Shown piece after piece: positions 1 to 16,858 of a DNA stretch of 64,000 nt. The position numbers and the translations under genes are program-made. The notes under the pieces were generated by a model. The model saw nothing but the letters and a program-made list of their open reading frames with translations, searched no databases and was not told the origin of the DNA. Location of the stretch: NCBI RefSeq assembly GCF_003018235.1, contig NZ_CP027437.1. One strand, given 5' to 3'. This DNA comes from Escherichia coli. Lineage in GTDB: Bacteria; Pseudomonadota; Gammaproteobacteria; Enterobacterales; Enterobacteriaceae. Positions within the stretch are counted from its first letter, which is position 1. Every line of letters begins with the position of its first letter.

Positions 1-1332
1 GCGGCATTTTTTAACTTTTTTGGCGTATTGCTAGGCGGACTTAGCGTTGCCTATGCCATTGTCCATATGTTGCCAACCGATTTGTTGCTGAATATGGGGT
101 CAACTCACGGCCTGGCGATGGTCTTTTCCATGCTGCTGGCGGCGATTATCTGGAACCTGGGAACGTGGTTCTTTGGTTTACCGGCCTCCAGTTCGCATAC
201 CTTGATTGGTGCGATTATCGGCATCGGTTTAACCAACGCGCTGTTAACCGGCTCATCGGTGATGGATGCGTTAAACCTGCGTGAAGTGACCAAAATTTTC
301 TCCTCGCTGATTGTTTCCCCTATCGTCGGCCTGGTCATTGCGGGAGGCCTGATATTCCTGCTGCGCCGCTACTGGAGCGGGACGAAAAAGCGTGACCGTA
401 TTCACCGCATTCCGGAAGATCGCAAAAAGAAAAAAGGCAAACGTAAGCCACCATTCTGGACGCGTATTGCGCTGATTGTTTCCGCTGCGGGCGTGGCGTT
501 TTCGCACGGCGCGAACGACGGGCAGAAAGGGATCGGCCTGGTGATGCTGGTACTGGTGGGGATTGCCCCTGCTGGTTTCGTCGTCAATATGAATGCGTCC
601 GGCTATGAAATTACCCGTACCCGCGATGCCGTCACCAACTTTGAACACTATCTGCAACAGCATCCTGAACTGCCGCAGAAGTTGATTGCGATGGAACCTC
701 CATTGCCTGCGGCATCGACTGATGGCACGCAAGTAACGGAGTTTCACTGTCATCCGGCAAATACCTTTGATGCGATTGCGCGCGTTAAAACGATGCTGCC
801 AGGCAATATGGAAAGTTACGAGCCGTTAAGCGTGAGTCAGCGCAGCCAGCTGCGCCGCATTATGCTGTGCATCTCTGATACCTCCGCGAAGCTGGCGAAA
901 CTGCCAGGCGTCAGTAAAGAAGACCAGAACCTGCTGAAAAAACTGCGCAGCGATATGTTAAGCACCATTGAGTACGCTCCGGTGTGGATCATCATGGCAG
1001 TAGCTCTGGCGCTCGGCATTGGCACCATGATTGGCTGGCGTCGTGTAGCGATGACCATCGGTGAGAAGATTGGTAAGCGCGGCATGACGTATGCGCAAGG
1101 CATGGCGGCACAAATGACGGCGGCAGTGTCTATCGGCCTTGCCAGTTATATTGGGATGCCCGTCTCCACAACACACGTCCTCTCGTCTGCGGTAGCAGGG
1201 ACGATGGTGGTGGACGGCGGTGGGTTACAGCGTAAAACGGTAACCAGCATCCTGATGGCGTGGGTGTTTACTTTACCGGCGGCGATTTTTCTTTCTGGTG
1301 GGTTGTACTGGATAGCATTGCAGTTGATTTAA
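1..1332 (+). CDS. pitB: Low-affinity inorganic phosphate transporter PitB; 5' end lies outside the window
   Basis: ORF 28..1332 is in frame with position 1 and matches the C-terminal ~430 aa of the PiT-family phosphate permease (paired PiT repeats, lysine-rich cytoplasmic loop). Called pitB rather than pitA from the adjacent yghT/yghS/yghR. Confidence 0.85.
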
Positions 1333-1341
1333 TCTTCCTGA

Positions 1342-1378
1342 AAATGCCCGGTCCTGGCGATCGGGCATTTCCATTTTT
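1342..1378. terminator. Hairpin with flanking T-run between convergent pitB and yghT; likely bidirectional intrinsic terminator
   Basis: Inverted repeat aatgcccg / cgggcatt at 1343-1350 and 1362-1369, followed by ccatttttg. Confidence 0.6.
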
Positions 1379-1380
1379 GA

Positions 1381-2073
1381 CTAGTGATACCCACGCGCGG
1401 TCATAAAATCCGTAATCGCTTTTTCTGCATCAACCAGTACCTTTTCCAGTGGCTGATTGGCGTCGATATCAACCAGTTGTGCACCACCAAAGGTTAACTG
1501 TGGCGTTATGGCTATCTTTCTTGCCAGCGATTCCCTTTTGTGGTCAGGCTTACGCGCGCAGGCCACGTCTAGATCGACATTGAGTTTGATGACCAGATCA
1601 GGTTTATGGCTCGCCATCCAGTGAAACGCTTTACGTTCCTGGCTTGCCAGCCATGAGACAAAACGACCACCTTCAATGTTAGGTGGGAACACTGTACCAT
1701 CGTAAGCGCCAGGAATTTGGTCCTGAGGATAACGGTCGGTTAGAACAATTAACCCGCGACGACGACAGGCAAGCATATGACGAAAGCGCAGTAAGCGACG
1801 GGCGACAAACGCTGTAATTACCAGCGCCGGAACAGGGCCAGGCAATTTTTTTGCTGTTTTCACCTGATTTCGTTCAATTGTTTTATGTAAGGATTTTCCC
1901 ATCAACGGTAATTTTGTCACTGCACGACCGACATTTCCGGCCTGTTTTCCTAAATGAACTCTTTCGGCTGCACCATATTTTTCGACAACGGTAATGAGAT
2001 GTTCACACACCGTTGACTTGCCTGAACCATCGCTACCAATAACGGCAATTAATGGAGGTGTTATTGACTGCAT
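1381..2073 (-). CDS. yghT: P-loop NTPase, kinase-like (YghT family)
   Basis: 230-aa ORF with Walker [14 protein letters not shown] and a downstream LTDRYP motif resembling the DRY/DRH motif of thymidylate/nucleoside-kinase-fold enzymes; paralogous to the next two genes. Confidence 0.8.
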
Positions 2074-2246
2074 GAATATATCCTTTAATTTAAATATCCA
2101 TTAAAAATATTTATTTGGTTAATATGTTTTTATGAAAGCGTAATTCAGGTCAATGTCACAATTAACCATTGTCACAATAAGGTTGAACGGATATTCTGAG
2201 CACGGACCACGTAATATTCAATACATTATTTGCTGCCGGGTTTTTC

Positions 2247-2960
2247 GTGAATCAACGTAATATGTCAATAATTAATTCCACGCCAGTGCGTGTTATTGCC
2301 ATTGTAGGATGTGATGGTTCAGGTAAATCGACCCTCACGGCAAGCCTGGTAAATGAACTGGCAGCAAGAATGCCAACAGAACACATTTATCTCGGGCAAT
2401 CGTCCGGGCGAATTGGCGAATGGATTTCACAGCTCCCTGTTATTGGCGCACCTTTTGGGCGTTATTTGCGAAGTAAAGCGGCACATGTGCACGAAAAGCC
2501 CTCAGCACCGCCTGGCAATATTACTGCGCTGGTTATCTATCTGCTTTCCTGCTGGCGGGCGTACAAGTTTCGCAAAATGTTGTGTAAAAGCCAGCAAGGC
2601 TATCTGCTCATCACCGACCGCTACCCGCAGGTTGAAGTGCCGGGTTTTCGCTTTGATGGCCCGCAATTGGCAAAAACCACGGGCGGTAACGGTTGGATAA
2701 AAATGTTAAGGCAGCGCGAGCTGAAGCTGTACCAATGGATGGCGTCTTATTTGCCCGTATTGTTGATTCGTCTTGGCATTGATGAACAAACCGCGTTTGC
2801 GCGTAAACCTGACCACCAACTGGCAGCGTTACAGGAAAAAATCGCCGTTACGCCGCAACTGACATTCAATGGCGCAAAGATCCTTGAACTGGATGGTCGG
2901 CAACCAGCCGATGAAATTATGCAAGCGTCACTACGCGCAATTCACGCCGCGCTTTCCTGA
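2247..2960 (+). CDS. yghS: P-loop NTPase, kinase-like (YghS family)
   Basis: 237-aa ORF with Walker A IAIVGCDGSGKST and ITDRYPQ motif; clear paralog of yghT and yghR; no ABC signature (LSGGQ). Confidence 0.8.
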   Translation: MNQRNMSIINSTPVRVIAIVGCDGSGKSTLTASLVNELAARMPTEHIYLGQSSGRIGEWISQLPVIGAPFGRYLRSKAAHVHEKPSAPPGNITALVIYLLSCWRAYKFRKMLCKSQQGYLLITDRYPQVEVPGFRFDGPQLAKTTGGNGWIKMLRQRELKLYQWMASYLPVLLIRLGIDEQTAFARKPDHQLAALQEKIAVTPQLTFNGAKILELDGRQPADEIMQASLRAIHAALS

Positions 2961-2991
2961 TCACCAAAATGGATAGGGGATGATTTAACGA

Positions 2992-3748
2992 ATGGATGCA
3001 CTACAAACACAAACTGTTAAGAGTACAACCGCGCCGCAGCCCAACTACATTCCGGGGCTGATTGCGGTGGTCGGGTGTGATGGCACCGGTAAATCCACGC
3101 TGACCACCGACCTGGTGAAATCGCTGCAACAACACTGGCAAACCGAGCGGCGCTATCTGGGGCTGCTCTCCGGCGAAGACGGCGACAAAATCAAACGATT
3201 GCCGTTGGTTGGCGTCTGGCTGGAACGGCGGCTGGCGGCCAAATCCTCGAAAACCCAAAGCATGAAAACCAAATTTCCAGCGCTATGGGCGGCGGTGATT
3301 ATGTACTGCTTCTCGCTGCGAAGAATGGCGAATCTACGCAAGGTTCAGCGACTGGCGCAAAGTGGCGTTCTGGTGGTCAGCGATCGCTTCCCGCAGGCTG
3401 AAATTTCGGGCTTTTATTATGACGGACCGGGGATCGGCGTCGAACGTGCGACCGGGAAAATCAGCATGTTTCTGGCGCAGCGCGAACGGCGTTTATACCA
3501 ACAAATGGCGCTACCGTCCTGAATTAATCATTCGCCTGGGCATTGATATTGATACTGCCATCTCCCGCAAGCCTGACCATGACTATGCCGAGCTGCAGGA
3601 CAAAATCGGCGTCATGTCGACGATTGGCTATAACGGCACAAAAATTCTTGAGATTGATTCCAGAGCGCCTTACAGCGAGGTGCTGGAACAGGCACAGAAG
3701 GCGGTTTCTCTGGTTGCCATCGTTTCTGACCGCCGAAGTTTAACTTAA
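2992..3748 (+). pseudogene. yghR: P-loop NTPase paralog YghR, apparently frameshifted
   Basis: Paralog homology runs in frame 1 (ORF 2992..3522, Walker A IAVVGCDGTGKST, VSDRFPQ) and then continues in another frame (ORF 3362..3748, RPELIIRLGIDIDTAISRKPDH aligning with yghS LPVLLIRLGIDEQTAFARKPDH). The 757-nt span is not a multiple of 3. Confidence 0.55.
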
Positions 3749-3793
3749 GGCAGGCGGGATACTTTTTACTATCAACGATAAGGTCAGGCTGAA

Positions 3794-5143
3794 TTGGCGG
3801 GTTTTAACATCAAACATTGGTTTGCAGATGGCGCGTTTCGCACCATTATTCGCAATAGCGCCTGGTTAGGCTCCAGTAATGTCGTGAGCGCCTTGCTGGG
3901 TCTGTTGGCGCTCTCGTGTGCCGGTAAAGGGATGACGCCCGCCATGTTTGGCGTACTGGTGATTGTGCAATCGTACGCCAAGTCGATCAGCGATTTTATT
4001 AAGTTTCAGACATGGCAGCTGGTGGTTCAGTACGGAACGCCAGCCTTGACCAACAATAATCCGCAGCAATTTCGCAATGTTGTCTCATTTTCCTTCTCGC
4101 TGGATATCGTCAGCGGCGCGGTGGCGATTGTCGGCGGCATTGCCTTACTGCCATTCCTTTCCCATTCATTAGGTCTGGATGACCAAAGCTTTTGGCTGGC
4201 GGCGCTCTATTGCACGCTCATTCCTTCAATGGCTTCCTCCACGCCGACCGGCATTCTGCGTGCGGTAGATCGCTTTGATTTGATTGCTGTACAGCAGGCG
4301 ACGAAACCTTTTCTGCGCGCAGCGGGGAGCGTCGTAGCCTGGTATTTTGACTTTGGTTTTGCGGGTTTTGTTATTGCCTGGTACGTGTCGAATCTGGTTG
4401 GCGGCACCATGTACTGGTGGTTTGCCGCGCGCGAATTACGCCGCAGAAATATCCATAACACCTTCAAATTGAATCTGTTTGAGTCTGCCCGACACATTAA
4501 AGGCGCGTGGAGTTTTGTCTGGTCAACCAACATTGCCCACTCCATCTGGTCGGCACGTAACTCGTGCAGCACAGTGCTGGTGGGGATCGTGTTAGGACCC
4601 GCTGCCGCCGGGTTATTTAAAATCGCCATGACATTCTTCGACGCCGCCGGAACGCCAGCGGGTTTACTGGGTAAAAGTTTTTACCCAGAGGTGATGCGTT
4701 TAGATCCGCGCACCACCAGACCGTGGTTGTTAGGCGTGAAGTCCGGTTTACTGGCGGGCGGAATCGGTATTCTGGTGGCGCTCGCGGTGTTGATCGTCGG
4801 CAAGCCGCTCATTTCGCTGGTGTTTGGCGTTAAGTATCTCGAAGCGTATGACCTGATTCAGGTGATGCTGGGCGCAATTGTGATTTCGATGCTGGGCTTC
4901 CCACAGGAGTCATTGCTATTGATGGCGGGAAAACAGCGCGCTTTTCTCGTGGCGCAAACCATCGCCTCAATCGGCTACATCGTATTGCTGTTCATGTTCT
5001 GTCATCTGTTTGGCGTGCTGGGGGCTGCATTTGCTTACTTCGCTGGGCAATGTCTGGATGTGGTGTTCTCGCTAATTCCAACCTTAAAGGCATTTTTTCA
5101 GCGCCATTCCTTGCTTTATAACGCAGCCGGAGAGAAATCCTGA
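3794..5143 (+). CDS. yghQ: Polytopic inner-membrane protein, MOP-superfamily flippase-like (YghQ); true start uncertain
   Basis: 449-aa ORF with many hydrophobic segments; I recall YghQ being annotated as a putative polysaccharide/lipid flippase. K-12 protein is shorter by my recollection, so an internal start is possible. Confidence 0.7.
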   Translation: MAGFNIKHWFADGAFRTIIRNSAWLGSSNVVSALLGLLALSCAGKGMTPAMFGVLVIVQSYAKSISDFIKFQTWQLVVQYGTPALTNNNPQQFRNVVSFSFSLDIVSGAVAIVGGIALLPFLSHSLGLDDQSFWLAALYCTLIPSMASSTPTGILRAVDRFDLIAVQQATKPFLRAAGSVVAWYFDFGFAGFVIAWYVSNLVGGTMYWWFAARELRRRNIHNTFKLNLFESARHIKGAWSFVWSTNIAHSIWSARNSCSTVLVGIVLGPAAAGLFKIAMTFFDAAGTPAGLLGKSFYPEVMRLDPRTTRPWLLGVKSGLLAGGIGILVALAVLIVGKPLISLVFGVKYLEAYDLIQVMLGAIVISMLGFPQESLLLMAGKQRAFLVAQTIASIGYIVLLFMFCHLFGVLGAAFAYFAGQCLDVVFSLIPTLKAFFQRHSLLYNAAGEKS

Positions 5144-5967
5144 TGATGAGAAAATATTTCCCGCTTGAGGCTAGCGAGCGTCTATTTGTTGCGATTGAAG
5201 AAGATGATGTCGTTGATGCACAGGTCAGTTTGCCGCCGACTATCGCACTAAGTTGTACCACCGAAATCATCCATGATAATTACGCGTTATGCCTGAAATT
5301 CTGGCTGGATGGTGTTAATCGTCAGGAGCTACTGCGTTTAATCCGCAAACAGGCGAAAGGCGATGAGCTGACGACAGACGAGCGCAAAAAGTATAAATAC
5401 ATGCGAGCGCGCTACAAGCATCTGCGCTTTGCGCAACGGCTGTATTTAAAGAAGCATCAGGCCGGATTTTTATTCGGCAAAACGACCGTTTTTTTGGGGC
5501 GTTTTCAGGACGGCTTTCGTAACGGTAAGAAAAATATTGTGTCGTATTACGGCAACCTGTTACGGGTTTATTTAAGCTCTCCGGTCTGGTCGTTGGTGAA
5601 CTATTCATTACGCCATAGCCAGTTAGAAAGCGTAAGCGGTTTTATTGCCTATCGGCAAAAGCAAATGCATACCCTGAAAGAGATAATTGCCAAACCGCGA
5701 CTAACTGGCAGGGAATTTCATGATGTGCGAAAAATCATCAGCCAGCAGGTTTCTTATTACGACACCCTAAGATCGCTTGATCCTGAAAATAAAGAGGCGT
5801 TACAGATTTCCCGCTTCCTCGCCGCCATTAATGGCCTGATGGGGGATAAACACGACGACATGGTGGCGGATGATATGGAAAACCGCCAGTCGTATGATGC
5901 ACCGGTGGCGCTGGATAGCGATATTCGCCAGCGCTTAGAGCTGCTGATTTCGCGTTTTCCGCTATAA
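5143..5967 (+). CDS. Hypothetical basic protein, 274 aa, function unknown
   Basis: ORF start overlaps the yghQ stop (TGATG), indicating translational coupling; no motif I recognise. Confidence 0.55.
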   Translation: MMRKYFPLEASERLFVAIEEDDVVDAQVSLPPTIALSCTTEIIHDNYALCLKFWLDGVNRQELLRLIRKQAKGDELTTDERKKYKYMRARYKHLRFAQRLYLKKHQAGFLFGKTTVFLGRFQDGFRNGKKNIVSYYGNLLRVYLSSPVWSLVNYSLRHSQLESVSGFIAYRQKQMHTLKEIIAKPRLTGREFHDVRKIISQQVSYYDTLRSLDPENKEALQISRFLAAINGLMGDKHDDMVADDMENRQSYDAPVALDSDIRQRLELLISRFPL

Positions 5968-5975
5968 CCGGAGCA

Positions 5976-6539
5976 ATGATGTCATCTCGTTTGATTATTG
6001 CGCTGATTATCATGCTCTTAGCCCCGGGTGTGCAGGCACACAATTTCGTCACTGGCAAAACGGTTACCCCTGTTTATATCCAGGAAGGCGGCGAGCTGCT
6101 TCTGAATAGCGACGACGAAATTCACTACCAAAAGTGGAACAGCACACAGCTGGCGGGAAAAGTTCGCATTATTCAGTATATCGCCGGGCGTAAGTCGGCG
6201 AAGAAAAAGAACTCACTGTTAATTAAAGCGGTTGAAGCGGCAAACTTTCCGCAGGATCGTTTTCAGCCCACCACCATTGTGAACACCGATGATGCCATTT
6301 TTGGTACTGGCTATTTTGTCGTTGGCAAAATCGAAAAAAATAAACGCCGCTATCCGTGGGCGCAATTCGTTATTGACGGCAATGGACAGGGACGCGTTGC
6401 CTGGCGGTTGCCGGAGCAGAGTTCAACCATTCTGGTGCTGAATAAAGCCGGGCAAATTCAGTGGGCAAAGGACGGCAGCCTGACGCCGGAAGAGGTAGAA
6501 CATGTCATTGCGCTGGCGCAGAAACTGATCAATGAATAA
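5976..6539 (+). CDS. Secreted/periplasmic YtfJ-family protein
   Basis: 187-aa ORF with N-terminal signal peptide (MMSSRLIIALIIMLLAPGVQA then HNF). Blocks TTIVNTDDAI and WAKDGSLTPEEV match my memory of E. coli YtfJ. Confidence 0.6.
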   Translation: MMSSRLIIALIIMLLAPGVQAHNFVTGKTVTPVYIQEGGELLLNSDDEIHYQKWNSTQLAGKVRIIQYIAGRKSAKKKNSLLIKAVEAANFPQDRFQPTTIVNTDDAIFGTGYFVVGKIEKNKRRYPWAQFVIDGNGQGRVAWRLPEQSSTILVLNKAGQIQWAKDGSLTPEEVEHVIALAQKLINE

Positions 6540-6569
6540 AAAATTCAAAGGATTGAGGGCGTTAGTGAG

Positions 6570-7640
6570 ATGAAGCTGGTTGAACACTACATCATGCGTG
6601 GTACGCGCCGTCTGGTGCTGATTATCGTCGGTTTTCTGATCTTTATTTTCGCCAGCTACTCCGCACAGCGTTATCTGACCGAAGCGGCAAATGGGACATT
6701 AGCTCTTGATGTTGTGCTGGATATTGTTTTCTACAAGGTGCTGATTGCACTGGAGATGTTGTTACCTGTTGGACTGTATGTGTCAGTTGGCGTGACGCTA
6801 GGGCAGATGTATACCGACTCGGAAATTACCGCTATTTCTGCGGCGGGGGGCAGTCCGGGACGCTTGTACAAAGCCGTTCTTTATCTGGCGATACCGCTAA
6901 GTATTTTTGTCACCCTTCTGTCGATGTATGGTCGTCCGTGGGCTTATGCGCAGATTTATCAACTGGAGCAACAGTCACAGTCGGAGCTGGATGTTCGCCA
7001 GTTGCGGGCAAAGAAATTTAACACTAACGATAACGGACGAATGATCCTTTCGCAGACGGTTGATCAGGATAATAATCGCCTGACTGACGCGCTGATTTAT
7101 ACTTCTACTGCCAATCGAACCCGCATTTTCCGCGCCCGTTCGGTTGATGTGGTTGACCCATCACCTGAGAAACCGACCGTTATGTTGCATAACGGGACCG
7201 CCTATCTTCTCGATCATCAGGGGCGTGACGACAACGAACAGATCTACCGTAATCTGCAATTACATCTGAATCCGCTGGATCAAAGCCCTAACGTCAAACG
7301 CAAAGCAAAATCGGTCACGGAGCTGGCGCGCTCCGCCTTTCCTGCCGATCATGCCGAACTGCAATGGCGACAAAGCCGTGGCCTGACAGCATTGTTGATG
7401 GCGCTGCTGGCCATTTCATTAAGTCGGGTAAAACCGCGGCAAGGGCGATTTTCAACGTTATTGCCACTGACGTTGCTGTTTATTGCCATTTTTTATGGCG
7501 GCGACGTCTGCCGTACGCTGGTGGCTAACGGCGCGATTCCCCTCATTCCTGGTTTGTGGTTAGTACCCGGACTCATGCTAATGGGCCTGCTGATGCTGGT
7601 CGCACGCGACTTCTCATTGCTGCAGAAATTTTCCCGATGA
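6570..7640 (+). CDS. LptF/LptG-family (YjgP/YjgQ) permease, first of a pair
   Basis: 356-aa ORF with N-terminal TM helices, an LGQMYTDSEITAISAAG block resembling LptF LGKLYTESEIT, a central soluble domain and C-terminal TM helices. Confidence 0.7.
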   Translation: MKLVEHYIMRGTRRLVLIIVGFLIFIFASYSAQRYLTEAANGTLALDVVLDIVFYKVLIALEMLLPVGLYVSVGVTLGQMYTDSEITAISAAGGSPGRLYKAVLYLAIPLSIFVTLLSMYGRPWAYAQIYQLEQQSQSELDVRQLRAKKFNTNDNGRMILSQTVDQDNNRLTDALIYTSTANRTRIFRARSVDVVDPSPEKPTVMLHNGTAYLLDHQGRDDNEQIYRNLQLHLNPLDQSPNVKRKAKSVTELARSAFPADHAELQWRQSRGLTALLMALLAISLSRVKPRQGRFSTLLPLTLLFIAIFYGGDVCRTLVANGAIPLIPGLWLVPGLMLMGLLMLVARDFSLLQKFSR

Positions 7641-8716
7641 ATGTTTTCAGTCGCTATTTAATCCGTCATCTCTTTCTCGGTTTTGCCGCCGCCGCAGGGC
7701 TATTGCTGCCGCTTTTTACCACCTTCAACCTGATTAACGAACTGGATGATGTCAGCCCGGGCGGTTATCGCTGGACTCAGGCGGTGCTGGTGGTGCTGAT
7801 GACCTTACCGCGTACACTGGTCGAACTTTCGCCGTTTATCGCATTATTGGGAGGGATTGTTGGCCTGGGGCAGTTATCGAAAAACAGTGAGCTTACCGCC
7901 ATTCGCAGCACGGGGTTTTCTATCTTCCGTATTGCACTAGTGGCGCTGGTTGCCGGGATATTGTGGACTGTTTCGTTAGGCGCGATAGATGAGTGGGTGG
8001 CGTCGCCATTGCAGCAACAGGCGCTGCAAATCAAATCGACTGCCACCGCGTTGGGGGAGGACGATGACATTACCGGCAATATGCTTTGGGCCAGGCGCGG
8101 TAATGAATTTGTGACGGTGAAATCGCTGAACGAGCAGGGCCAGCCTGTGGGCGTGGAGATATTTCATTATCGCGACGATCTCTCGCTCGAATCCTACATT
8201 TTTGCACGCAGTGCCTCCATTGAAGACGACAAAACATGGATCCTGCATGGTGTGAATCATAAAAAATGGTTGAATGGCAAGGAAACGCTGGAAACATCAG
8301 ATAATCTTGCCTGGCAATCGGCCTTCACCAGTATGAATCTTGAAGAGTTATCGATGCCGGGAAATACTTTTTCTGTCCGTCAACTTAATCATTACATCCA
8401 TTATTTGCAGGAAACTGGGCAACCCAGCAGCGAATACCGCCTTGCACTGTGGGAAAAACTGGGACAACCCATCCTGACCCTGGCGATGATTTTGCTGGCT
8501 GTGCCGTTTACCTTTAGTGCCCCGCGTTCGCCTGGGATGGGTAGCCGTCTCGCTGTAGGCGTCATCGTGGGCTTACTTACCTGGATCAGCTATCAAATCA
8601 TGGTCAATCTGGGATTGCTATTTGCGTTGAGCGCACCTGTTACCGCGCTCGGTTTACCGGTAGCGTTTGTGCTGGTGGCGTTGAGCCTGGTGTATTGGTA
8701 TGACAGACAACATTAA
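7637..8716 (+). CDS. LptF/LptG-family (YjgP/YjgQ) permease, second of a pair
   Basis: Start MNVFSRYLIRH overlaps the upstream stop (ATGA at 7637-7640); SELTAIRSTGFS block resembles LptG SELVVMQASGF; same TM - periplasmic domain - TM layout. Confidence 0.7.
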   Translation: MNVFSRYLIRHLFLGFAAAAGLLLPLFTTFNLINELDDVSPGGYRWTQAVLVVLMTLPRTLVELSPFIALLGGIVGLGQLSKNSELTAIRSTGFSIFRIALVALVAGILWTVSLGAIDEWVASPLQQQALQIKSTATALGEDDDITGNMLWARRGNEFVTVKSLNEQGQPVGVEIFHYRDDLSLESYIFARSASIEDDKTWILHGVNHKKWLNGKETLETSDNLAWQSAFTSMNLEELSMPGNTFSVRQLNHYIHYLQETGQPSSEYRLALWEKLGQPILTLAMILLAVPFTFSAPRSPGMGSRLAVGVIVGLLTWISYQIMVNLGLLFALSAPVTALGLPVAFVLVALSLVYWYDRQH

Positions 8717-8717
8717 A

Positions 8718-8744
8718 CCCGCCGTGGCGCAACACCACAGCGGG
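8718..8744. terminator. Hairpin in the 35-bp gap between the convergent permease and Spt-like genes; possible bidirectional terminator
   Basis: cccgccgtgg (8718-8727) and ccacagcggg (8735-8744) form an imperfect inverted repeat with one mismatch. Confidence 0.4.
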
Positions 8745-8750
8745 CTCACA

Positions 8751-9923
8751 TTACTGCTTCAGAGTAGCGAACGCTTGAATGATGGCATCAATTTGCTCAC
8801 GACTGTGGGCAGCGTTTACGCTACAGCGCAGCAGCGTGATGCCTGCAGGCGCGGCAGGTGGCAGGATAAGATTCACATAAACGCCCAGCGAAATAAGCTC
8901 GCGCCAGATGCGTAAACCTTCCTCTTTCGAACCGATTATTACTGGCACTACCGGGCTAATATGTGAACTTAACTCATAATCCAGTTTTTGCAGACCGTCA
9001 TACAGATGGTTGGCATTATCCATCAGCTTTTGCCGCAACTCTGGTTGTGAGACAATGGTTCTTAACGACGAGCGCACGGTCGCAATGCAGGACGGAGAAG
9101 GAGAGGCGGTAAAAATATACGGGCGGCTGCCGTAGCGCAACACTTCCATCGCTTCCGAACCGACAGCAAAACCGCCAATCGAGGCCAGGCTTTTACTGAA
9201 GGTACCAACGATAATATCCACATCATCTTCAACGCCAACGGCTTCAGCCAGTCCGCGCCCCGTTGCGCCTAACACGCCAAACGAATGCGCTTCATCGACA
9301 ATCAAATAACCACCGAGACGACGTTTGATATCAACAATTTCCGCCAGCGGCGCAACGTCACCGAGCATACTGTAGATGCCTTCAACGATGATAATCGCCT
9401 CTTTTGCCCGTTCACCGAGGCGAACCATGCGCCGTTCCAGATCTTTAGCATCGTTATGGCGGAAACGAATAATTTCCGCGCCACCGAGAGAACAGGCGTC
9501 ATAAATACTGGCGTGGCTGTCGGCATCCAGTAACACCACGGCGTTATGGTCGGCAAGTGCGCTGATGACGCCTAAATTAGCGGTATAACCGGTTGAAAAA
9601 ACGATAGCGGTAGGGCGATTAAAAAACTCGGCGATCTCTTTCTCTAACGCCAGATGCGGCGCATAACTGCCGTTTGCCATACGAGAACCGGTGGTGCCGG
9701 TGCCTTGGGCCGCTAACGCTGCCTGACCTTCGGCGATGGCATCATGATTAAAGGTTAAACCGAGATAATTATTGGTCCCGGCCAGAATCACTTTTTTATT
9801 GCCGATCCGACCTTCGGTGGCGGAATACACTTCATCAATACAGGTGCCAAACGGTGTTAACCCGTTGTCACTAAATTGCAGTCGCTCGCCAGCAAGGCGC
9901 GCATATTTATCGTATAGCCCCAT
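8751..9923 (-). CDS. PLP-dependent alpha-oxoamine synthase, serine-palmitoyltransferase-like (Spt/Kbl/BioF family)
   Basis: 390-aa ORF with the PLP-lysine motif GTFSKSLASIGGF and DEAHSFG, as in serine palmitoyltransferase and 8-amino-7-oxononanoate synthase. Confidence 0.8.
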   Translation of the reverse strand: MGLYDKYARLAGERLQFSDNGLTPFGTCIDEVYSATEGRIGNKKVILAGTNNYLGLTFNHDAIAEGQAALAAQGTGTTGSRMANGSYAPHLALEKEIAEFFNRPTAIVFSTGYTANLGVISALADHNAVVLLDADSHASIYDACSLGGAEIIRFRHNDAKDLERRMVRLGERAKEAIIIVEGIYSMLGDVAPLAEIVDIKRRLGGYLIVDEAHSFGVLGATGRGLAEAVGVEDDVDIIVGTFSKSLASIGGFAVGSEAMEVLRYGSRPYIFTASPSPSCIATVRSSLRTIVSQPELRQKLMDNANHLYDGLQKLDYELSSHISPVVPVIIGSKEEGLRIWRELISLGVYVNLILPPAAPAGITLLRCSVNAAHSREQIDAIIQAFATLKQ

Positions 9924-10171
9924 TATTTATTCTCCAGCCATGGAAGTAGTGTTTCCATTAATTGCGCAGGGGTTTTGACATCCAGCAGAATATTAATAGG
10001 AATGGAAATATCGAATCTGTCTTCCAGCATCATTAAGAGATCCATCACTTTGATCGACTCCAGGCCAAGATCGTTGACGAGATCGCTGTCGGGCTTAATT
10101 TCCACACCGTTTTCGACCAAATCCTGTAAACAGGAAAGGATGTAATCCATTACTATTTCACGATTTACCAT
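9923..10171 (-). CDS. Acyl carrier protein
   Basis: 82-aa acidic ORF with phosphopantetheine-attachment motif DLGLESIKVMDL; its stop overlaps the Spt start (TAATG). Confidence 0.75.
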   Translation of the reverse strand: MVNREIVMDYILSCLQDLVENGVEIKPDSDLVNDLGLESIKVMDLLMMLEDRFDISIPINILLDVKTPAQLMETLLPWLENK

Positions 10172-10202
10172 AGAAACGTTAACACACCTTTAAACAAGAC
10201 AA

Positions 10203-11117
10203 TCAAAATAGCCCGTTGCGTAATGCGTGTTCCAGGCTAATCCCGGGAAACCAATTAATATCTTCAGAAATACGGTTATTACTTGCCGACCAGTCGGCAT
10301 GAGTTAATTCACGGATTTTCGAACGAGTCAGCATCGGTTCTTTACCCGCCAGACGGCTCAACGCGGTACTGATATCCGCAAGGCAGGTGAGTAGCGGCAG
10401 AGGAATACCGACCATCCGCACGGAACCGCAACGGGCGTCGGCGGCAAGCTGTCTTACGCGTTGCCAGTCATAGCCTCCGGCGACGCCATCGCATAATTCA
10501 TAGGTTTGCGTCTGTACAGTTTCGGCGCTTAACCACTGACCCACTGCTTGCGCAAAATCGGTGACGTGAAGAAAAGAGAGCTGTGTCTCTGGCGTGCCAA
10601 GTCGTGGCAGCAGGCCGCGCAGCATCCAGTCAAACAGCGGTTTTAACTCTTTATCGCCGGGACCATACACGGCTGTCGGGCGAAAAACGCCCAGCGTAAT
10701 TTCATCAGCCATTGCAGTCAGCCGTTGTTCGGCGACGTGTTTGGAATTTGCGTACCAGGAGAGTTCGGGATGGCGCGCCGCCAGCGAAGAGATAAACAGA
10801 AAACGTTGGCAAAAGCCGCTCTCTTTTGCCGCTTGCATCAGGCGCAGGCTGCCGTCAACGTTACAGCGGGTAAAAATCTCTTCTTTGTGTCCGCGCACTT
10901 GTCCGGCGCAATGGACCACCGCGCTGGCTCCGGCAACCAGTTCGCTAAGCGAATGTGTATCTTCCAGCGAACCGCGCACCCAGATGAGATTATCATTGAC
11001 GTGAGCGCGGGCAGTACGCGTCAATGCGCGAACGTGAAAGCCGCGGGCGAGCAGGTTATCGATAATATATTTACCGATAAACCCGGTAGCGCCCGTCACC
11101 GCGACAGTTTGATTCAT
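10203..11117 (-). CDS. NAD(P)-dependent epimerase/dehydratase-family (extended SDR) reductase, CerR-like
   Basis: 304-aa ORF with N-terminal Rossmann motif VTGATGFIG and catalytic YxxxK (YANSK). Confidence 0.75.
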   Translation of the reverse strand: MNQTVAVTGATGFIGKYIIDNLLARGFHVRALTRTARAHVNDNLIWVRGSLEDTHSLSELVAGASAVVHCAGQVRGHKEEIFTRCNVDGSLRLMQAAKESGFCQRFLFISSLAARHPELSWYANSKHVAEQRLTAMADEITLGVFRPTAVYGPGDKELKPLFDWMLRGLLPRLGTPETQLSFLHVTDFAQAVGQWLSAETVQTQTYELCDGVAGGYDWQRVRQLAADARCGSVRMVGIPLPLLTCLADISTALSRLAGKEPMLTRSKIRELTHADWSASNNRISEDINWFPGISLEHALRNGLF

Positions 11118-12823
11118 GCCAGGGATTCCTGCACATGAAGGCTTGCAGCATAACGTTTTTTCGCTTCCGCACGGGCAGGCTTGCCGGAGGACGTTCGGGG
11201 AATACTGTGGGGCGGCAACAGATCGATAGCCGCTGTTACGCCAAATTCGCTTTGGATCCGTGCTACCAGTGCGTGGATAAGCTGCCCACGACGTTCTTCG
11301 TCGCTGATCCTACACTGGATCTGCAGAATGATTTTTTCCTGGGCGGTAACAAAAGCAATCGCATCGCCAGAATGAATTTCCGGTTCCTGTTCCGCAATAT
11401 ATTCAATATCCTGCGGCCAGATATTACGGCCACGAATAATAATCAGATCTTTAATGCGTCCGGTGACATACAGATAACCGTCCAGCAGATAACCGAGGTC
11501 GCCGGTGTCTAACCAGCCCGTCGCGGCAATCTCGTCTTGTGAAATCTGGTCGCCAAAGTAACCGCTCATCAGGCTAGGGCCGGAGATGCAAATATGGCCT
11601 ACCACACGTTCCGCGACAGGTATACCTGCTTCATTGCGGATTTCAATGCCATGTTCCGGCAACGCTTTACCGCAGTTGACGAAAGTCGATACGGCGCGTG
11701 TTTCAGCATCCGGCGCGACGGCTTTGCCCTGATATTCGAGGATGTCGCGATCCACTTCGTTAACCACAACCCCGGAAGCTTCATCAGAGAAGCTGACAGC
11801 CAGCGCATTTTCTGCCAGTCCGTAGCACGGCATGAAAGTTTTATCGTCAAAGTTGACCTGACGGAAACATTCAGCGAATTGATGGAGTTGTTCTGCGGAG
11901 ATGGGTTCTGCACCAATACCAGCGACGCGCCAGCAGGAAAGATCCAGTTCAGCGAGATCTTTTTCATTCACGCGGCGCTGGCACAATTCATAGCCAAACG
12001 GCGGCGCAACGGAAACGGTGCCGCGATTTTTACTGATCAATTTAAGCCATTGCAGAGGACGCATGGCAAAATCCTGAGTGCGCAAATAATCTACTGAAAG
12101 CTGCGTGGCGACGGGGGGCAGGAGAAAGCCGACCAGTCCCATATCATGGTAGAAAGGCAGCCAGGAGACGCAGCGGTCGCCAGGGCGTAATTTAATGCCA
12201 TCGTGGCTTATAGCACGTAGATTAGCCATCACTTCGCGATGGGTGATAATGACGCCACGGGGAAAACGGGTGCTGCCGGAGGTGTACTGGAGGTAGGCGA
12301 TATCGTTCGGAACTGGACGCTGGAGCGCAACATCGGCTTCCGGTAATGCCTTAAACCAGGCGTGGCTTAAAACATGTAATTCGGGGTTGTTATGCGTAGC
12401 GGCATTGACCAGTGGCAACCACTCATCACCAGTGATAATGGCTGCGGGCTGGCAACTTGCCAGTAAACCCTGCAGTTTGGCGCTCCAGGAATCCCGCTGA
12501 CCGACGCCCATTGGAATCGCCAACGGGACGGCGACTAAGCCGGCATACTGGCAGGAAAAAAAAGCCTCTACGAACCCGCTACTGGTTTCGGCAATCAGCG
12601 CCACGCGATCGCCTTTTTTCAGGTTCAGCGATAACAACCGCTTCGCACCAGCTTCGGCACGCGCTTTTAACGTCTGATATTCCAGTTGATCTTCAAGTTG
12701 GCAACGTCTGTCATAAAAATTCATTCCGGCGCTACTCAGAGCGGCGTAGTCCAAAGCATCAACCAGCGTTGGAAAATCGGCATAGCGCATAGGTAGGGAA
12801 TGCGTAAAGATTTTATTAGACAT
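11114..12823 (-). CDS. Fatty-acyl-AMP ligase / acyl-ACP synthetase (AMP-binding superfamily)
   Basis: Adenylation motifs YTSGSTRFPRGV and TGDLGY...GRIKDLIIIRGRNI; stop overlaps the reductase start (ATGA). Start taken at the ATG for MSNKIF; the ORF track extends to 12850 on a TTG. Confidence 0.8.
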   Translation of the reverse strand: MSNKIFTHSLPMRYADFPTLVDALDYAALSSAGMNFYDRRCQLEDQLEYQTLKARAEAGAKRLLSLNLKKGDRVALIAETSSGFVEAFFSCQYAGLVAVPLAIPMGVGQRDSWSAKLQGLLASCQPAAIITGDEWLPLVNAATHNNPELHVLSHAWFKALPEADVALQRPVPNDIAYLQYTSGSTRFPRGVIITHREVMANLRAISHDGIKLRPGDRCVSWLPFYHDMGLVGFLLPPVATQLSVDYLRTQDFAMRPLQWLKLISKNRGTVSVAPPFGYELCQRRVNEKDLAELDLSCWRVAGIGAEPISAEQLHQFAECFRQVNFDDKTFMPCYGLAENALAVSFSDEASGVVVNEVDRDILEYQGKAVAPDAETRAVSTFVNCGKALPEHGIEIRNEAGIPVAERVVGHICISGPSLMSGYFGDQISQDEIAATGWLDTGDLGYLLDGYLYVTGRIKDLIIIRGRNIWPQDIEYIAEQEPEIHSGDAIAFVTAQEKIILQIQCRISDEERRGQLIHALVARIQSEFGVTAAIDLLPPHSIPRTSSGKPARAEAKKRYAASLHVQESLA

Positions 12824-13194
12824 ATACACCACGAAAAAATTGGATATCAAAAATAAAATGACAATAATGCGGTGGATTATATAGGCATAAAAGATAAATG
12901 AGATAGTATTTTCATCAGTGTGAAAATGAACATTGATTTAAATAATGAGTTTGAGTTTTTTTGTTTTTATTGTGAATGATATTTAATTTATGAATGTATT
13001 AAGAAGAAGCCTTGTCCGGTCGCCTTAAATCGACAAAAGGCATTGTGGCGCTTCTGTGTAGTCTCTGACCTTATCGTAATCATTAATAAATGCTATTTAT
13101 TCGTCGTTTGTATTCATTGGGTTGATTATTAAGGTGCCGTTCGTTGCTGTTGCAACCTGTTTGTCACCGTTAATTATTTGTTACCCACAGAACT
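12824..13194. promoter_or_regulatory. AT-rich divergent control region between the lipid operon (-) and yghO (+)
   Basis: ~370 bp of visibly AT-rich non-coding DNA with A/T tracts between two divergently oriented starts; typical of divergent promoters and H-NS-bound regions. No specific site identified. Confidence 0.45.
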
Positions 13195-14337
13195 ATGGAA
13201 TGCGATCTGCTGATGATTAAAATTGAAAAAGTAATTAATAAAAATGACCTTAAGGCATTTATCGCTTTTCCGTCATCACTTTATCCCGACGATCCAAACT
13301 GGATACCCCCTTTATTCATTGAACGCAACGAGCATTTGTCTGCGAAAAATCCGGGGACGGACCATATCATCTGGCAGGCGTGGGTGGCAAAAAAAGCCGG
13401 GCAGATAGTTGGGCGAATTACCGCGCAAATCGATACCTTGCACCGTGAGCGTTACGGTGAAGATACCGGTCATTTCGGCATGATTGACGCCATTGATGAT
13501 CCGCAGGTTTTTGCCGCGTTGTTTGGCGCAGCGGAAGCGTGGTTGAAGTCACAAGGAGCAAGTAAGATCAGCGGGCCTTTCAGCCTGAATATCAATCAGG
13601 AAAGCGGATTACTGATTGAAGGTTTCGATACACCACCCTGTGCGATGATGCCGCACGGTAAACCGTGGTATGCCGCGCATATTGAACAATTGGGTTATCA
13701 CAAAGGCATTGATTTACTGGCGTGGTGGATGCAGCGAACCGATCTCACTTTCTCTCCGGCGCTAAAAAAACTGATGGATCAGGTGCGTAAGAAGGTGACC
13801 ATTCGCTGCATCAATCGCCAGCGGTTTGCCGAAGAGATGCAGATCCTGCGTGAGATTTTCAACTCTGGCTGGCAGCACAACTGGGGATTTGTGCCGTTTA
13901 CCGAACATGAATTCGCGACCATGGGCGATCAACTTAAATATCTGGTGCCGGACGATATGATCTACATCGCTGAGATTGATTCTGCACCCTGCGCGTTTAT
14001 TGTCGGCTTGCCAAACATCAACGAGGCGATTGCCGATCTGAACGGATCGCTCTTTCCCTTCGGCTGGGCAAAATTGCTGTGGCGTTTAAAAGTCAGCGGT
14101 GTGCGAACTGCGCGAGTACCGCTGATGGGCGTGCGGGACGAGTATCAGTTTAGCCGCATCGGCCCGGTGATTGCGCTGTTATTGATTGAAGCCTTACGCG
14201 ATCCGTTTGCCCGCCGGAAGATCGATGCGCTGGAAATGTCATGGATCCTCGAAACCAATACAGGCATGAATAACATGCTGGAACGCATTGGGGCGGAGCC
14301 GTACAAGCGTTACCGATTGTATGAAAAGCAGATTTAA
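13195..14337 (+). CDS. yghO: YghO, candidate N-acyltransferase (possibly GNAT-like), intact here
   Basis: 380-aa ORF next to glcC, which is where yghO sits in E. coli. The acyltransferase assignment is from recollection of annotation and context, not from a motif I can verify. Start could be M7 (MIKIEKV). Confidence 0.65.
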   Translation: MECDLLMIKIEKVINKNDLKAFIAFPSSLYPDDPNWIPPLFIERNEHLSAKNPGTDHIIWQAWVAKKAGQIVGRITAQIDTLHRERYGEDTGHFGMIDAIDDPQVFAALFGAAEAWLKSQGASKISGPFSLNINQESGLLIEGFDTPPCAMMPHGKPWYAAHIEQLGYHKGIDLLAWWMQRTDLTFSPALKKLMDQVRKKVTIRCINRQRFAEEMQILREIFNSGWQHNWGFVPFTEHEFATMGDQLKYLVPDDMIYIAEIDSAPCAFIVGLPNINEAIADLNGSLFPFGWAKLLWRLKVSGVRTARVPLMGVRDEYQFSRIGPVIALLLIEALRDPFARRKIDALEMSWILETNTGMNNMLERIGAEPYKRYRLYEKQI

Positions 14338-14343
14338 TACCAG

Positions 14344-15108
14344 CTAACTCTGGTTCATCTCCAGCGGCACCGCCGAGCGAATCAAATGGTGGCCTTCCAG
14401 CTCGATATCGTGGAGATTCTTTTTCACGGTCCGCACATGATCGCGTGCTGCGCGCTGGGCGACGTGCGGCAGCCGCTGCAACACCGCGTTGTAGATCCGC
14501 GCATGCTGGCGATCGATCTGCTTTTTTTGCTGTGGTCGATGGTAGAGATTATTTACGCTGGCAAACACTGAATTAAACATCAGGTCGGTCAATGATTGCA
14601 GTGTAAACACCAACACCTGATTGTGAGAAGCCTGACAAATGGCGAGATGGAAAGCGTGATCCAACTGCGCATGTTCGATCAGCGAAATCTCTTTGTTGTT
14701 CTCACTGGCGGCGAGCATTTTTTCATAACAGCGGGTTATCACAACAAAATCAGCCTGCGTTCCCAGCGTTGCCGCCAGCCTTGCCGATTCGCCCTCCAGC
14801 AATGCGCGAACGTCGAGCAGATCATACAGCGTTCGCGGCTGCGTACTGAACAGATGGATCAGCGGGCTGGTGTCCTGCACCCGATTAAGCCGTGCGACAC
14901 GAGAATCGCGACCCTGCGCCGTTTCAATAATCCCGCGCCCGCGCAGCACGGTCAGCCCTTCACGCAGTGCGGAGCGTGAGAAGCCGAGCTTTTCACACAG
15001 TCGACGTTCCGAGGGAAGCGGCTGACCGACCTTCAGTACGCCGTCGATAATTAACCGTTCGATACTCTCTGCAACCACTTCGCAAATAGGGCGACGTTCA
15101 TCTTTCAT
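14344..15108 (-). CDS. glcC: GntR-family transcriptional activator of the glycolate operon
   Basis: 254 aa from MKDERRPICEVVAES; N-terminal GntR-type HTH; divergent from glcD. Confidence 0.9.
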   Translation of the reverse strand: MKDERRPICEVVAESIERLIIDGVLKVGQPLPSERRLCEKLGFSRSALREGLTVLRGRGIIETAQGRDSRVARLNRVQDTSPLIHLFSTQPRTLYDLLDVRALLEGESARLAATLGTQADFVVITRCYEKMLAASENNKEISLIEHAQLDHAFHLAICQASHNQVLVFTLQSLTDLMFNSVFASVNNLYHRPQQKKQIDRQHARIYNAVLQRLPHVAQRAARDHVRTVKKNLHDIELEGHHLIRSAVPLEMNQS

Positions 15109-15358
15109 TCCCGGACCTCGTGCACAGGTAGGACCAATTTTTCTGTTCTTGACTCGCAAAACACGCACATCACGTAAGTGATTATGTTACATCAATTTAA
15201 CATTAAGTTAACCAAGACAAGGTCACAGAGCTGGAAAAAAAATGGTCTGACCGGTAGCTAAAGAGATAGACGAAAACGAAAAGCCCGCTTAATAACTGTT
15301 CACAGAAGCAGCGCGCAAAAATCAGCTGCCACACAACACAACAAAGCGAAGCCTACTC
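15109..15358. promoter_or_regulatory. glcC-glcD divergent promoter region
   Basis: 250-bp intergenic region between divergent starts; the known architecture of the glc locus. Individual binding sites not mapped. Confidence 0.5.
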
Positions 15359-16858
15359 ATGAGCATCTTGTACGAAGAGCGTCTTGATGGCGCTTTACCC
15401 GATGTCGACCGCACATCGGTACTGATGGCACTGCGTGAGCATGTCCCTGGACTGGAGATCCTGCATACCGATGAGGAGATCATTCCTTACGAGTGTGACG
15501 GGTTGAGCGCGTATCGCACGCGTCCATTACTGGTTGTTCTGCCTAAGCAAATGGAACAGGTGACAGCGATTCTGGCTGTTTGTCACCGCCTGCGTGTACC
15601 GGTGGTGACCCGTGGTGCAGGCACCGGGCTTTCTGGTGGCGCGCTGCCGCTGGAAAAAGGTGTGTTGTTGGTGATGGCGCGCTTTAAAGAGATCCTCGAC
15701 ATTAACCCCGTTGGTCGCCGCGCGCGCGCGCAGCCGGGCGTGCGTAACCTGGCGATCTCCCAGGCCGTTGCGCCGCATAATCTCTATTACGCGCCGGATC
15801 CTTCCTCACAAATCGCCTGTTCAATTGGCGGCAATGTGGCGGAAAATGCCGGTGGCGTCCACTGCCTGAAATATGGTCTGACCGTACATAACCTGCTGAA
15901 AATTGAAGTGCAAACGCTGGACGGCGAGGCGCTGACGCTGGGATCGGACGCGCTGGATTCGCCTGGTTTTGACCTGCTGGCGCTGTTCACCGGATCGGAA
16001 GGTATGCTCGGCGTGACCACCGAAGTAACGGTGAAGCTGTTGCCGAAGCCGCCCGTGGCGCGGGTTCTGTTAGCCAGCTTTGACTCGGTAGAAAAAGCCG
16101 GACTTGCAGTTGGTGACATCATCGCCAATGGCATTATCCCCGGCGGGCTGGAGATGATGGATAACCTGTCGATCCGCGCGGCGGAAGATTTTATTCATGC
16201 CGGTTATCCCGTCGACGCCGAAGCGATTTTGTTATGCGAGCTGGACGGCGTGGAGTCTGACGTACAGGAAGACTGCGAGCGGGTTAACGACATCTTGTTA
16301 AAAGCGGGCGCGACTGACGTCCGTCTGGCACAGGACGAAGCAGAGCGCGTACGTTTCTGGGCCGGTCGCAAAAATGCGTTCCCTGCGGTAGGACGAATCT
16401 CCCCGGATTACTACTGCATGGATGGCACCATCCCGCGCCGTGCCCTGCCTGGCGTACTGGAAGGCATTGCCCGTTTATCGCAGCAATATGATTTACGTGT
16501 TGCTAACGTCTTTCATGCCGGAGACGGCAACATGCACCCGTTAATCCTTTTCGATGCCAACGAACCCGGTGAATTTGCCCGCGCGGAAGAGCTGGGCGGG
16601 AAGATCCTCGAACTCTGCGTTGAAGTTGGCGGCAGCATCAGTGGGGAACATGGCATCGGGCGAGAAAAAATCAATCAAATGTGCGCCCAGTTCAACAGCG
16701 ATGAAATCACGACCTTCCATGCGGTCAAGGCGGCGTTTGACCCCGATGGTTTGCTGAACCCTGGGAAAAACATTCCCACGCTACACCGCTGTGCTGAATT
16801 TGGTGCCATGCATGTGCATCACGGTCATTTACCTTTCCCTGAACTGGAGCGTTTCTGA
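15359..16858 (+). CDS. glcD: Glycolate oxidase FAD-binding subunit
   Basis: 499-aa ORF, FAD-binding PCMH-type oxidase; first gene of the glcDEFGBA order. Confidence 0.9.
   Translation: MSILYEERLDGALPDVDRTSVLMALREHVPGLEILHTDEEIIPYECDGLSAYRTRPLLVVLPKQMEQVTAILAVCHRLRVPVVTRGAGTGLSGGALPLEKGVLLVMARFKEILDINPVGRRARAQPGVRNLAISQAVAPHNLYYAPDPSSQIACSIGGNVAENAGGVHCLKYGLTVHNLLKIEVQTLDGEALTLGSDALDSPGFDLLALFTGSEGMLGVTTEVTVKLLPKPPVARVLLASFDSVEKAGLAVGDIIANGIIPGGLEMMDNLSIRAAEDFIHAGYPVDAEAILLCELDGVESDVQEDCERVNDILLKAGATDVRLAQDEAERVRFWAGRKNAFPAVGRISPDYYCMDGTIPRRALPGVLEGIARLSQQYDLRVANVFHAGDGNMHPLILFDANEPGEFARAEELGGKILELCVEVGGSISGEHGIGREKINQMCAQFNSDEITTFHAVKAAFDPDGLLNPGKNIPTLHRCAEFGAMHVHHGHLPFPELERF

Follow-up and report, generated by a model that had tools for sequence, protein, structure and literature searches.

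The 13 genes between pitB and glcC on Escherichia coli contig NZ_CP027437.1 very probably form the enterobacterial version of the proteobacterial sphingolipid locus, serving both the synthesis and the export of a ceramide. They occupy positions 1381-14337 of the 64,000-nt stretch of DNA analysed here (the window, to which all coordinates refer), of which 1-15500 is the pitB-glcC interval. An earlier note on this DNA had proposed the five-enzyme bacterial ceramide route, namely serine palmitoyltransferase (Spt), an acyl carrier protein (ACP), an acyl-ACP synthetase, the reductase CerR and the bacterial ceramide synthase bCerS, and we found a matching gene for each of these steps (Table 1). This ceramide reading of the locus is correct but was already in the literature, making it a rediscovery rather than a discovery.

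The same locus is present in E. coli BL21(DE3), as ECD_02850-ECD_02854, within an identical pitB-to-glcC gene order. The dihydroceramide genes of that strain were named by Padilla-Gomez et al. (2022, Front Microbiol 13:961041; PMC9386255) as yghO/cerS (aca; ECD_02850), aasR (ECD_02851), epi/cerR (ECD_02852), acpR (ECD_02853) and spt (ECD_02854). The window proteins are 96.4-100% identical to these (Spt 98.7%, ACP 100%, the short-chain dehydrogenase/reductase (SDR) 96.4%, the fatty acyl-AMP ligase (FAAL) 96.9% and YghO 99.7%), and therefore the published BL21 biochemistry applies directly. At strain level the window differs from BL21 by a frameshift in yghR and by small indels that affect the SDR gene and the 5' part of the FAAL one. 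In that work AcpR-Ec was found to bear 4'-phosphopantetheine, its acylation by AasR-Ec was indicated by co-expression data, SPT-Ec favoured acyl-AcpR, and co-expression of AasR-Ec, AcpR-Ec and SPT-Ec led to 3-oxo-sphinganine being formed (PMC9386255). BL21 overexpressing the upstream steps also gave compounds that migrated like sphinganine and ceramide in thin-layer chromatography (TLC) (PMC9386255). The statement in the earlier note that the locus has no characterised product in E. coli has thus been outdated since 2022, when AasR, AcpR and Spt of E. coli B were reported to make 3-oxo-sphinganine. Comparison of the BL21 orthologs with Caulobacter proteins (PMC9386255, Table S2) gave 44% identity between YghO and the bCerS CC_1154 (98% coverage, E 1e-107), 53% for Spt and 34% for CerR against CC_1164. 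The study covers the five ceramide genes, with yghRST, yghQ, the gene for a 274-aa protein, the ytfJ paralog and lptF2/G2 outside its scope.

From this we propose the following pathway. The FAAL-type ligase AasR would load a free fatty acid onto AcpR and Spt would condense the acyl-AcpR with serine to 3-oxo-sphinganine, both steps having been shown for the near-identical BL21 proteins. By homology and synteny, YghO would then N-acylate the long-chain base and the SDR (CerR) would reduce the 3-keto group, giving dihydroceramide. The plus-strand operon, from yghS through yghR, yghQ, the CHAD-like gene and the ytfJ-like gene to lptF2 and lptG2, would decorate and export the lipid together with the divergent yghT. 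Here the three proteins of thymidylate kinase (TMPK) fold and the CHAD-fold protein may work on the head group from the cytoplasmic side, with phosphorylation as the likeliest reaction; YghQ would flip the lipid across the inner membrane; and LptF2/LptG2, driven by the housekeeping LptB ATPase, would draw it out towards the outer membrane. The locus is not visibly active in BL21 under laboratory conditions, and K-12 has lost it through an IS5-associated deletion.

Spt passes the curated serine palmitoyltransferase model NF047599 (595 bits, cut-off 500) and stays below the cut-offs of its sister families (bioF 332 bits against 426, Kbl 294 against 460, CqsA-type 218 against 428 and ALAS 216 against 339). 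Among solved structures it sides with the Sphingomonas enzyme 2JG2 (373 bits) and is far from Kbl/BioF (176-199 bits), so that the grouping with BioF or Kbl, which the earlier note had named as fatal to its reading, was not seen. Alignment to 2JG2 shows conserved equivalents of His159, Asp231, His234, Lys265 and Arg390. In the numbering of the Sphingomonas enzyme we take these to be the catalytic His/Asp/His, the pyridoxal phosphate lysine and the carboxylate-binding arginine. A different product was also considered: in place of an outer-membrane sphingolipid, the locus would make an amino-lipid that is soluble or secreted, for instance a free long-chain base or an N-acyl signal, with the LptF/G paralogs serving lipopolysaccharide (LPS) or another glycolipid. 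We regard this as highly improbable. Signals of the CAI-1 type are indeed products of alpha-oxoamine synthases too, and the PDB relatives include a cysteate acyltransferase; against this, the scores of Spt lie well above the cut-off for serine palmitoyltransferases and well below those for CqsA, BioF and Kbl, and the E. coli enzyme makes 3-oxo-sphinganine from serine (PMC9386255). The part of this alternative that concerns transport is taken up with LptF2/LptG2 below.

The remaining synthetic enzymes are encoded close by. The stop of the ACP gene overlaps the start of spt at 9923. A small ACP gene thus lies directly upstream of spt and shares its operon, and the gene of a FAAL-type ligase is close by, the arrangement expected of the AcpR/AasR pair of Rhodobacteria; the ACP matches ACP models and has the motif DLGLES. 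The ligase passes NF006624 (867 bits against a cut-off of 600). Its start is ambiguous, with options at TTG 12850, ATG 12838, ATG 12823 and 12802, the BL21 gene being annotated from the equivalent of the last of these, and strains differ from one another by indels in the 5' part of the gene. The SDR, encoded between aasR and acpR, has the Rossmann motif GATGFIG at residues 9-15 and a YxxxK motif, YANSK, at 122; its best PDB relatives are NDUFA9-type SDRs. YghO gave no match in Pfam, NCBIfam or PDB sequence searches. Its AlphaFold2 model is of high confidence (pLDDT 95.8), the top PDB fold matches being the tandem GNATs 2wpw, 5kf1 and 7q3a, and the family is large, with 1129 representatives at E <= 1e-30. 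By fold, synteny and orthology YghO is a candidate tandem-GNAT acyltransferase of the bCerS family and a candidate ceramide synthase. An indirect bridge to CC_1154 is also available, as a Nitrosomonas eutropha homolog (in locus L059) is 50% identical to YghO and the published Neut_1100 is 41% identical to CC_1154.

On the export side, LptF2 and LptG2 pass the NCBI equivalog models TIGR04407 (319 bits, cut-off 230) and TIGR04408 (305 bits, cut-off 240) respectively. They share the permease family (PF03739) and approximately six hydrophobic segments per subunit with the canonical LPS extractor LptB2FG. Unlike it, they are distant paralogs, accessory (absent in K-12), encoded away from lptB and set among sphingolipid genes. 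LptF2 reaches only 77-115 bits against solved LptF proteins, with 94-96 bits to the 6s8g/6s8h/6mhu set. Neither the list of open reading frames (ORFs) nor the annotation holds an LptB-like ATPase gene within the locus. A second LptF/LptG pair, in a sphingolipid locus and lacking an LptB of its own, is what we looked for as the mark of an LptF2/LptG2 transporter, and that is the arrangement found. The RefSeq/PGAP name 'LPS export ABC transporter permease LptF/LptG' for the paralogs at 6570-8716 follows from the equivalog cut-offs passed and is probably an over-annotation.

These cut-offs, and the annotation of YghQ as an LPS biosynthesis protein in RefSeq, are what would support a role of the pair in LPS or glycolipid transport, as the amino-lipid alternative has it. 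Set against this are the distant relation of LptF2/G2 to solved LptF proteins, the co-localisation of lptF2/G2 with bCerS homologs across phyla, and Caulobacter genetics that tie LptF2/G2 to sphingolipids (Uchendu et al. 2026, bioRxiv 10.64898/2026.04.12.717747). In that work the Caulobacter LptF2/G2 were linked to sphingolipid export; they form a complex and bind LptB, and their genes can be deleted only in the absence of spt. LptC2 is reported as restricted to Caulobacter species. The E. coli UTI89 locus is drawn there as a 'sphingolipid operon' (Fig. 2B). The LPS-transport-like extraction suggested by the earlier note agrees with this study.

YghQ is a candidate MOP-type flippase by sequence: it matches the MOP flippase model NF007773 weakly, has at least seven hydrophobic segments, and its Serratia ortholog matches PF01943 and PF13440. 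The Caulobacter protein CC_1166 is reported to carry InterPro IPR002797, given as oligosaccharide flippase (PMC11324152, S1 Text). The YtfJ paralog passes TIGR01626 (212 bits, cut-off 151) and begins with a hydrophobic signal segment (residues 1-19).

The ceramide and export genes travel together well beyond E. coli. Scanning genomes with an alignment of the YghO family yielded 80 loci, which belong to other proteobacteria, Nitrospira and related groups. Within ~10 kb of the YghO homologs, tblastn located spt in 32 of these loci, acp and sdr in 30 each, faal in 33, lptF2 in 36 and lptG2 in 41. The recurring order is spt-acp-sdr-faal followed by yghO-X-lptF2-lptG2. In many unrelated proteobacteria YghO homologs adjoin the first set of genes, the lptF2-lptG2 pair or both; the spt association is seen also in L090. 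Clusters of the Pseudomonas/Nitrosomonas/Azotobacter type (PMC11324152, Fig. 7 and S2 tables; our L003-L082) have the same spt-acp-sdr-faal divergent from yghO, then lptF2-lptG2, and the proteins of the Pseudomonas marginalis cluster share 57-75% identity with those of E. coli. Closer to home, Serratia marcescens carries the same 13 genes contiguously, with the two halves rearranged and different flanks, and the set is kept in other Enterobacterales also, despite rearrangement. The ytfJ paralog is present in the Serratia cluster and in none of the 80 non-enterobacterial loci, and a homolog of the 274-aa protein was found in only two of them.

The other-species clusters differ from the E. coli locus in what surrounds these genes. 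A CC_1153-like nucleotidyltransferase follows yghO in 67 of the 80 loci, a CpgB-like lipid kinase is present in 39 and an adjacent 321-aa gene in 37. In P. marginalis, spt is also adjoined by the gene of an MsbA-like ABC transporter, and MsbA-like homologs occur in 15 of the 80 loci. Searches with the Pseudomonas counterparts of CC_1153, CpgB and the adjacent 321-aa gene (tblastn, E <= 1e-3) gave no match when run against the 64-kb window and the loci of BL21 and Serratia, to which the search was confined, and hence the enterobacterial locus appears to be without the ceramide-phosphoglycerate head-group genes (CpgA/B/C, CC_1152/1153). The Caulobacter crescentus region CC_1152-CC_1168 resembles that of E. 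coli in having LptF2/LptG2 paralogs that come without an LptB of their own, and also a membrane protein of the polysaccharide-flippase type (CC_1166, to be compared with YghQ). In place of Caulobacter-type head-group genes E. coli carries the three TMPK-fold proteins, the CHAD-fold protein and the YtfJ paralog. This Caulobacter region has reportedly also been treated by Olea-Ozuna in 2021 and by Stankeviciute in 2022 (Nat Chem Biol). LptC2/F2/G2 and a flippase candidate were placed in it by Olea-Ozuna et al. (2024; PMC11324152). Among the extra genes of the P. marginalis locus (L003, 555-5505 and 14165-16898) we noted a CptA-like phosphoethanolamine transferase, the MsbA-like ABC transporter, a YegS/CpgB-like lipid kinase and an LpxO/OlsC-like acyl hydroxylase. 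Two metagenome contigs (71% GC) matched by a published cpgB 20-mer primer were considered as Caulobacter loci and dropped, having no homology to the locus proteins.

The kinase-like genes are the first part of this alternative equipment. YghR, YghS and YghT are true paralogs, 34-42% identical to each other (YghT 34-36% to the other two), with invariant P-loop, DR[YF]PQ and RKPDH motifs, and their family profile matches TMPK structures at E 1.6e-6, a remote thymidylate-kinase fold. The earlier note had described three P-loop kinase-like paralogs. The paralogy was borne out, but only yghS and yghT are intact here: yghR has a 2-bp deletion ('AA') near 3512, as compared with strain VCSW5 and a K-12-type strain, which splits it into overlapping ORFs at 2992-3522 and 3362-3748. 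It is unlikely that these proteins are unrelated neighbours outside the lipid system, being true dTMP kinases. RefSeq does call YghS and YghT 'dTMP kinase', their fold is thymidylate-kinase-like, and K-12 kept the genes though it lost the core of the locus; yet they reach only 24-31 bits against the dTMP kinase model TIGR00041, with a cut-off of 83, on which ground we rejected the identification for YghS and YghT. Furthermore, their homologs, including fused doubles, stand directly beside spt-acp-sdr-faal, YghQ-like or CHAD-like genes in P. marginalis (L003), a betaproteobacterial metagenome-assembled genome (L021), Methylotenera (L090), L091, Serratia (L087) and Saccharibacter (L089). In the last, kinase, CHAD-like and flippase genes form a trio that adjoins a histidine phosphatase. 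Homologs of YghS are neighbours of spt clusters in Pseudomonas and Methylotenera, among other loci. The RefSeq name is a probable over-annotation, YghT for example scoring 24 bits against the cut-off of 83.

We also tried YghR/S/T as homologs of CpgB, the Caulobacter ceramide kinase, and rejected this, CpgB being an LCB5/DAG-kinase domain protein with a GGDG motif and YghR/S/T being P-loop proteins of TMPK fold. The P. marginalis locus holds both TMPK-like kinases and a CpgB-like kinase, and therefore neither type simply stands in for the other. Proteins of ~470-515 aa that combine two YghR/S/T-type domains occur in Acetobacteraceae (Saccharibacter, Bombella, Oecophyllibacter) and in certain other lineages (P0391-P0415; L089, 10001-11404; L091, 10001-11464). 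Such fusions suggest that the YghR/S/T paralogs work as a hetero-oligomer.

The 274-aa protein gave no match in Pfam, NCBIfam or PDB sequence searches, and the Pfam CHAD model matched none of the 28 members of its family. Its fold is confidently predicted to be CHAD-like, with the two four-helix bundles of that fold, and many basic and histidine residues are invariant. The CHAD domain itself is a polyphosphate-binding helical module (PDB 6qv5, 3e0s, 6rn5), from whose usual setting the 274-aa protein differs by being neither fused nor next to a CYTH triphosphatase. Two labels on this family preceded our work, one UniRef homolog being named 'CHAD domain-containing protein' and another carrying the RAST-style name 'TPR repeat protein, clustered with yghQ'; literature and source names yielded no CHAD link beyond those two labels.

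Since kinase, CHAD-like and flippase genes recur beside spt clusters, we treat them as one module of the system, and their gene content suggests phosphate chemistry on the head group. Parts of the module stand beside spt clusters in some beta- and gammaproteobacteria also, and the trio occurs in an acetic-acid bacterium. It is tempting to go further and propose that the Enterobacterales-type module (three TMPK-fold proteins, the CHAD-fold protein, YghQ and the YtfJ paralog) builds a head group unlike the ceramide phosphoglycerate of Caulobacter, the likeliest product being phosphate-rich, i.e. a ceramide phosphate, pyrophosphate or oligophosphate. This is a tentative proposal that we consider rather unlikely to be right.

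The locus is common in E. coli. The core (5143-12850) is covered to at least 80% in 4066 of 5426 complete E. coli genomes, and the whole 15.5-kb query (window 1-15500) in 4044. In a K-12-type genome an IS5 takes the place of window 4863-13234, so that the 3' end of yghQ, the eight genes between and the first 40 bases of yghO are gone. The earlier note had stated that K-12 has only an IS5 and a disrupted yghO here, which this comparison bears out; the absence it described holds for K-12 and does not extend to rarity in the species. K-12 papers that name yghQ/R/S/T (on chlorhexidine adaptation and a silkworm virulence screen) concern the truncated remnant only and give no insight into function. 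At 99% identity or more the 15.5-kb stretch is matched by only one of the 5426 genomes, and thus the source strain is not closely related to most sequenced lineages; its best match is strain VCSW5, from drain sediment, with 98.7% over the full length.

This bears on an alternative in which the E. coli locus is silent and decaying, a remnant whose enzymes work if overexpressed but give the cell no product or benefit. Several observations lean that way, some of which also weigh against our view of the locus as a working sphingolipid system. BL21 with empty vectors showed no such lipid on TLC (PMC9386255). About a quarter of complete E. coli genomes are without the core, K-12 having lost it to IS5, and yghR is broken in the window strain, so the system is dispensable. 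The two divergent intergenic regions (2074-2246 and 12839-13194) are AT-rich in an interval of ~50% GC and may be compatible with silencing. Other points weigh against our view alone. A native E. coli sphingolipid is not reported in the searchable literature. In Spt itself, the equivalent of Arg378 of the Sphingomonas enzyme is a leucine, the BL21 enzyme being active nonetheless. The ceramide synthase and reductase are candidates from homology and synteny, and for YghQ, YghR/S/T, the CHAD-like protein and the YtfJ paralog the putative roles come from gene neighbourhood and fold only.

Decay is nevertheless difficult to reconcile with the pattern of substitution. The ratio of nonsynonymous to synonymous substitution rates (dN/dS) between the window and BL21(DE3) is 0.00-0.18 across nine locus genes (yghT 0.04, yghO 0.012; three further locus genes could not be scored), similar to the 0.05 of the flanking glcC. 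The ORFs are intact in 4066 genomes, and the 13-gene set persists in Serratia and other Enterobacterales through rearrangement. We therefore largely reject the remnant explanation, which we consider quite unlikely. From the low dN/dS and the conservation of the 13 genes in Serratia it follows that, at the level of sequence, the locus is under purifying selection in most E. coli and is a maintained functional unit rather than debris.

Coordinates are collected in Table 1; every gene listed in the earlier note was recovered at the place it had named or within a few codons of it. The pitB-glcC interval consists of four transcription units, including yghT alone on the minus strand and yghO on the plus strand, divergent from the FAAL gene. 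The plus-strand unit (2247-8716) starts with yghS and has short gaps or overlaps throughout, and the minus-strand operon (12838-8751), in the order FAAL-SDR-ACP-spt, is convergent to it. The hairpin at 8714-8748 is the strongest terminator-like structure of the region and lies exactly between the convergent stops of lptG2 and spt. A promoter scan of the locus returned 14 promoter-like sites with 15 expected, i.e. chance level. RefSeq already has the names 'spt: serine palmitoyltransferase', 'fatty acyl-AMP ligase', 'acyl carrier protein', 'lptF' and 'lptG' at the locus.

Table 1. Genes and other features of the pitB-glcC interval (window positions).
Feature	Position	Strand	Description	Basis or remark
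yghT	1381-2073	-	thymidylate-kinase-fold P-loop protein, paralog 1	ORF and profile scores
yghS	2247-2960	+	thymidylate-kinase-fold P-loop protein, paralog 2	
yghR	2992-3748	+	paralog 3	frameshifted pseudogene in the window
yghQ	3794-5143	+	MOP/Wzx-type inner-membrane flippase candidate	full length, 449 aa
274-aa protein	5143-5967	+	predicted cytoplasmic, all-helical, basic protein of CHAD-like fold	
YtfJ-family gene	5976-6539	+	periplasmic protein, paralog of core ytfJ	TIGR01626
lptF2	6570-7640	+	LptF paralog; permease half of presumed sphingolipid extractor	TIGR04407
lptG2	7637-8716	+	LptG paralog; second permease half	TIGR04408; start overlaps lptF2 stop
hairpin	8714-8748		probable bidirectional terminator between lptG2 and spt	GC-rich, 16-bp stem
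spt	8751-9923	-	serine palmitoyltransferase	NF047599
acpR	9923-10171	-	specialised acyl carrier protein	ACP models
cerR/epi	10203-11117	-	extended-SDR 3-keto reductase candidate	motifs and orthology
aasR	11114-12838	-	FAAL-type acyl-AcpR synthetase	NF006624; start codon ambiguous
divergent promoter region aasR/yghO	12839-13194		AT-rich, 41-43% GC	deleted in K-12
yghO	13195-14337	+	bCerS-type tandem-GNAT N-acyltransferase, ceramide synthase candidate	predicted fold, synteny and orthology

What our analysis adds to the literature is the count of the distribution, the purifying selection, the conservation of the 13 genes in Serratia and the alternative TMPK/CHAD/flippase module in place of Caulobacter-type head-group genes. 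Gram-negative envelope biology takes E. coli as its reference organism, and the species is usually said to be free of sphingolipids. Approximately three quarters of the strains sequenced, BL21 and major pathotypes among them, are predicted to have a complete, selectively maintained ceramide pathway with its own Lpt-like exporter. The remaining interest lies in the native lipid and its head group, in regulation and in the kinase/CHAD-like/YtfJ module, with possible effects on the outer-membrane barrier, polymyxin and bile sensitivity and host signalling. The missing Caulobacter-type head-group genes at the locus and the conserved alternative module provide concrete handles for experiments. Should the head group indeed be phosphate-rich, YghR/S/T would make up a novel lipid kinase class and the CHAD-like protein would deal with either the anionic head group or a polyphosphate donor; E. 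coli would then, under some conditions, place an LPS-mimicking anionic sphingolipid into its outer membrane.

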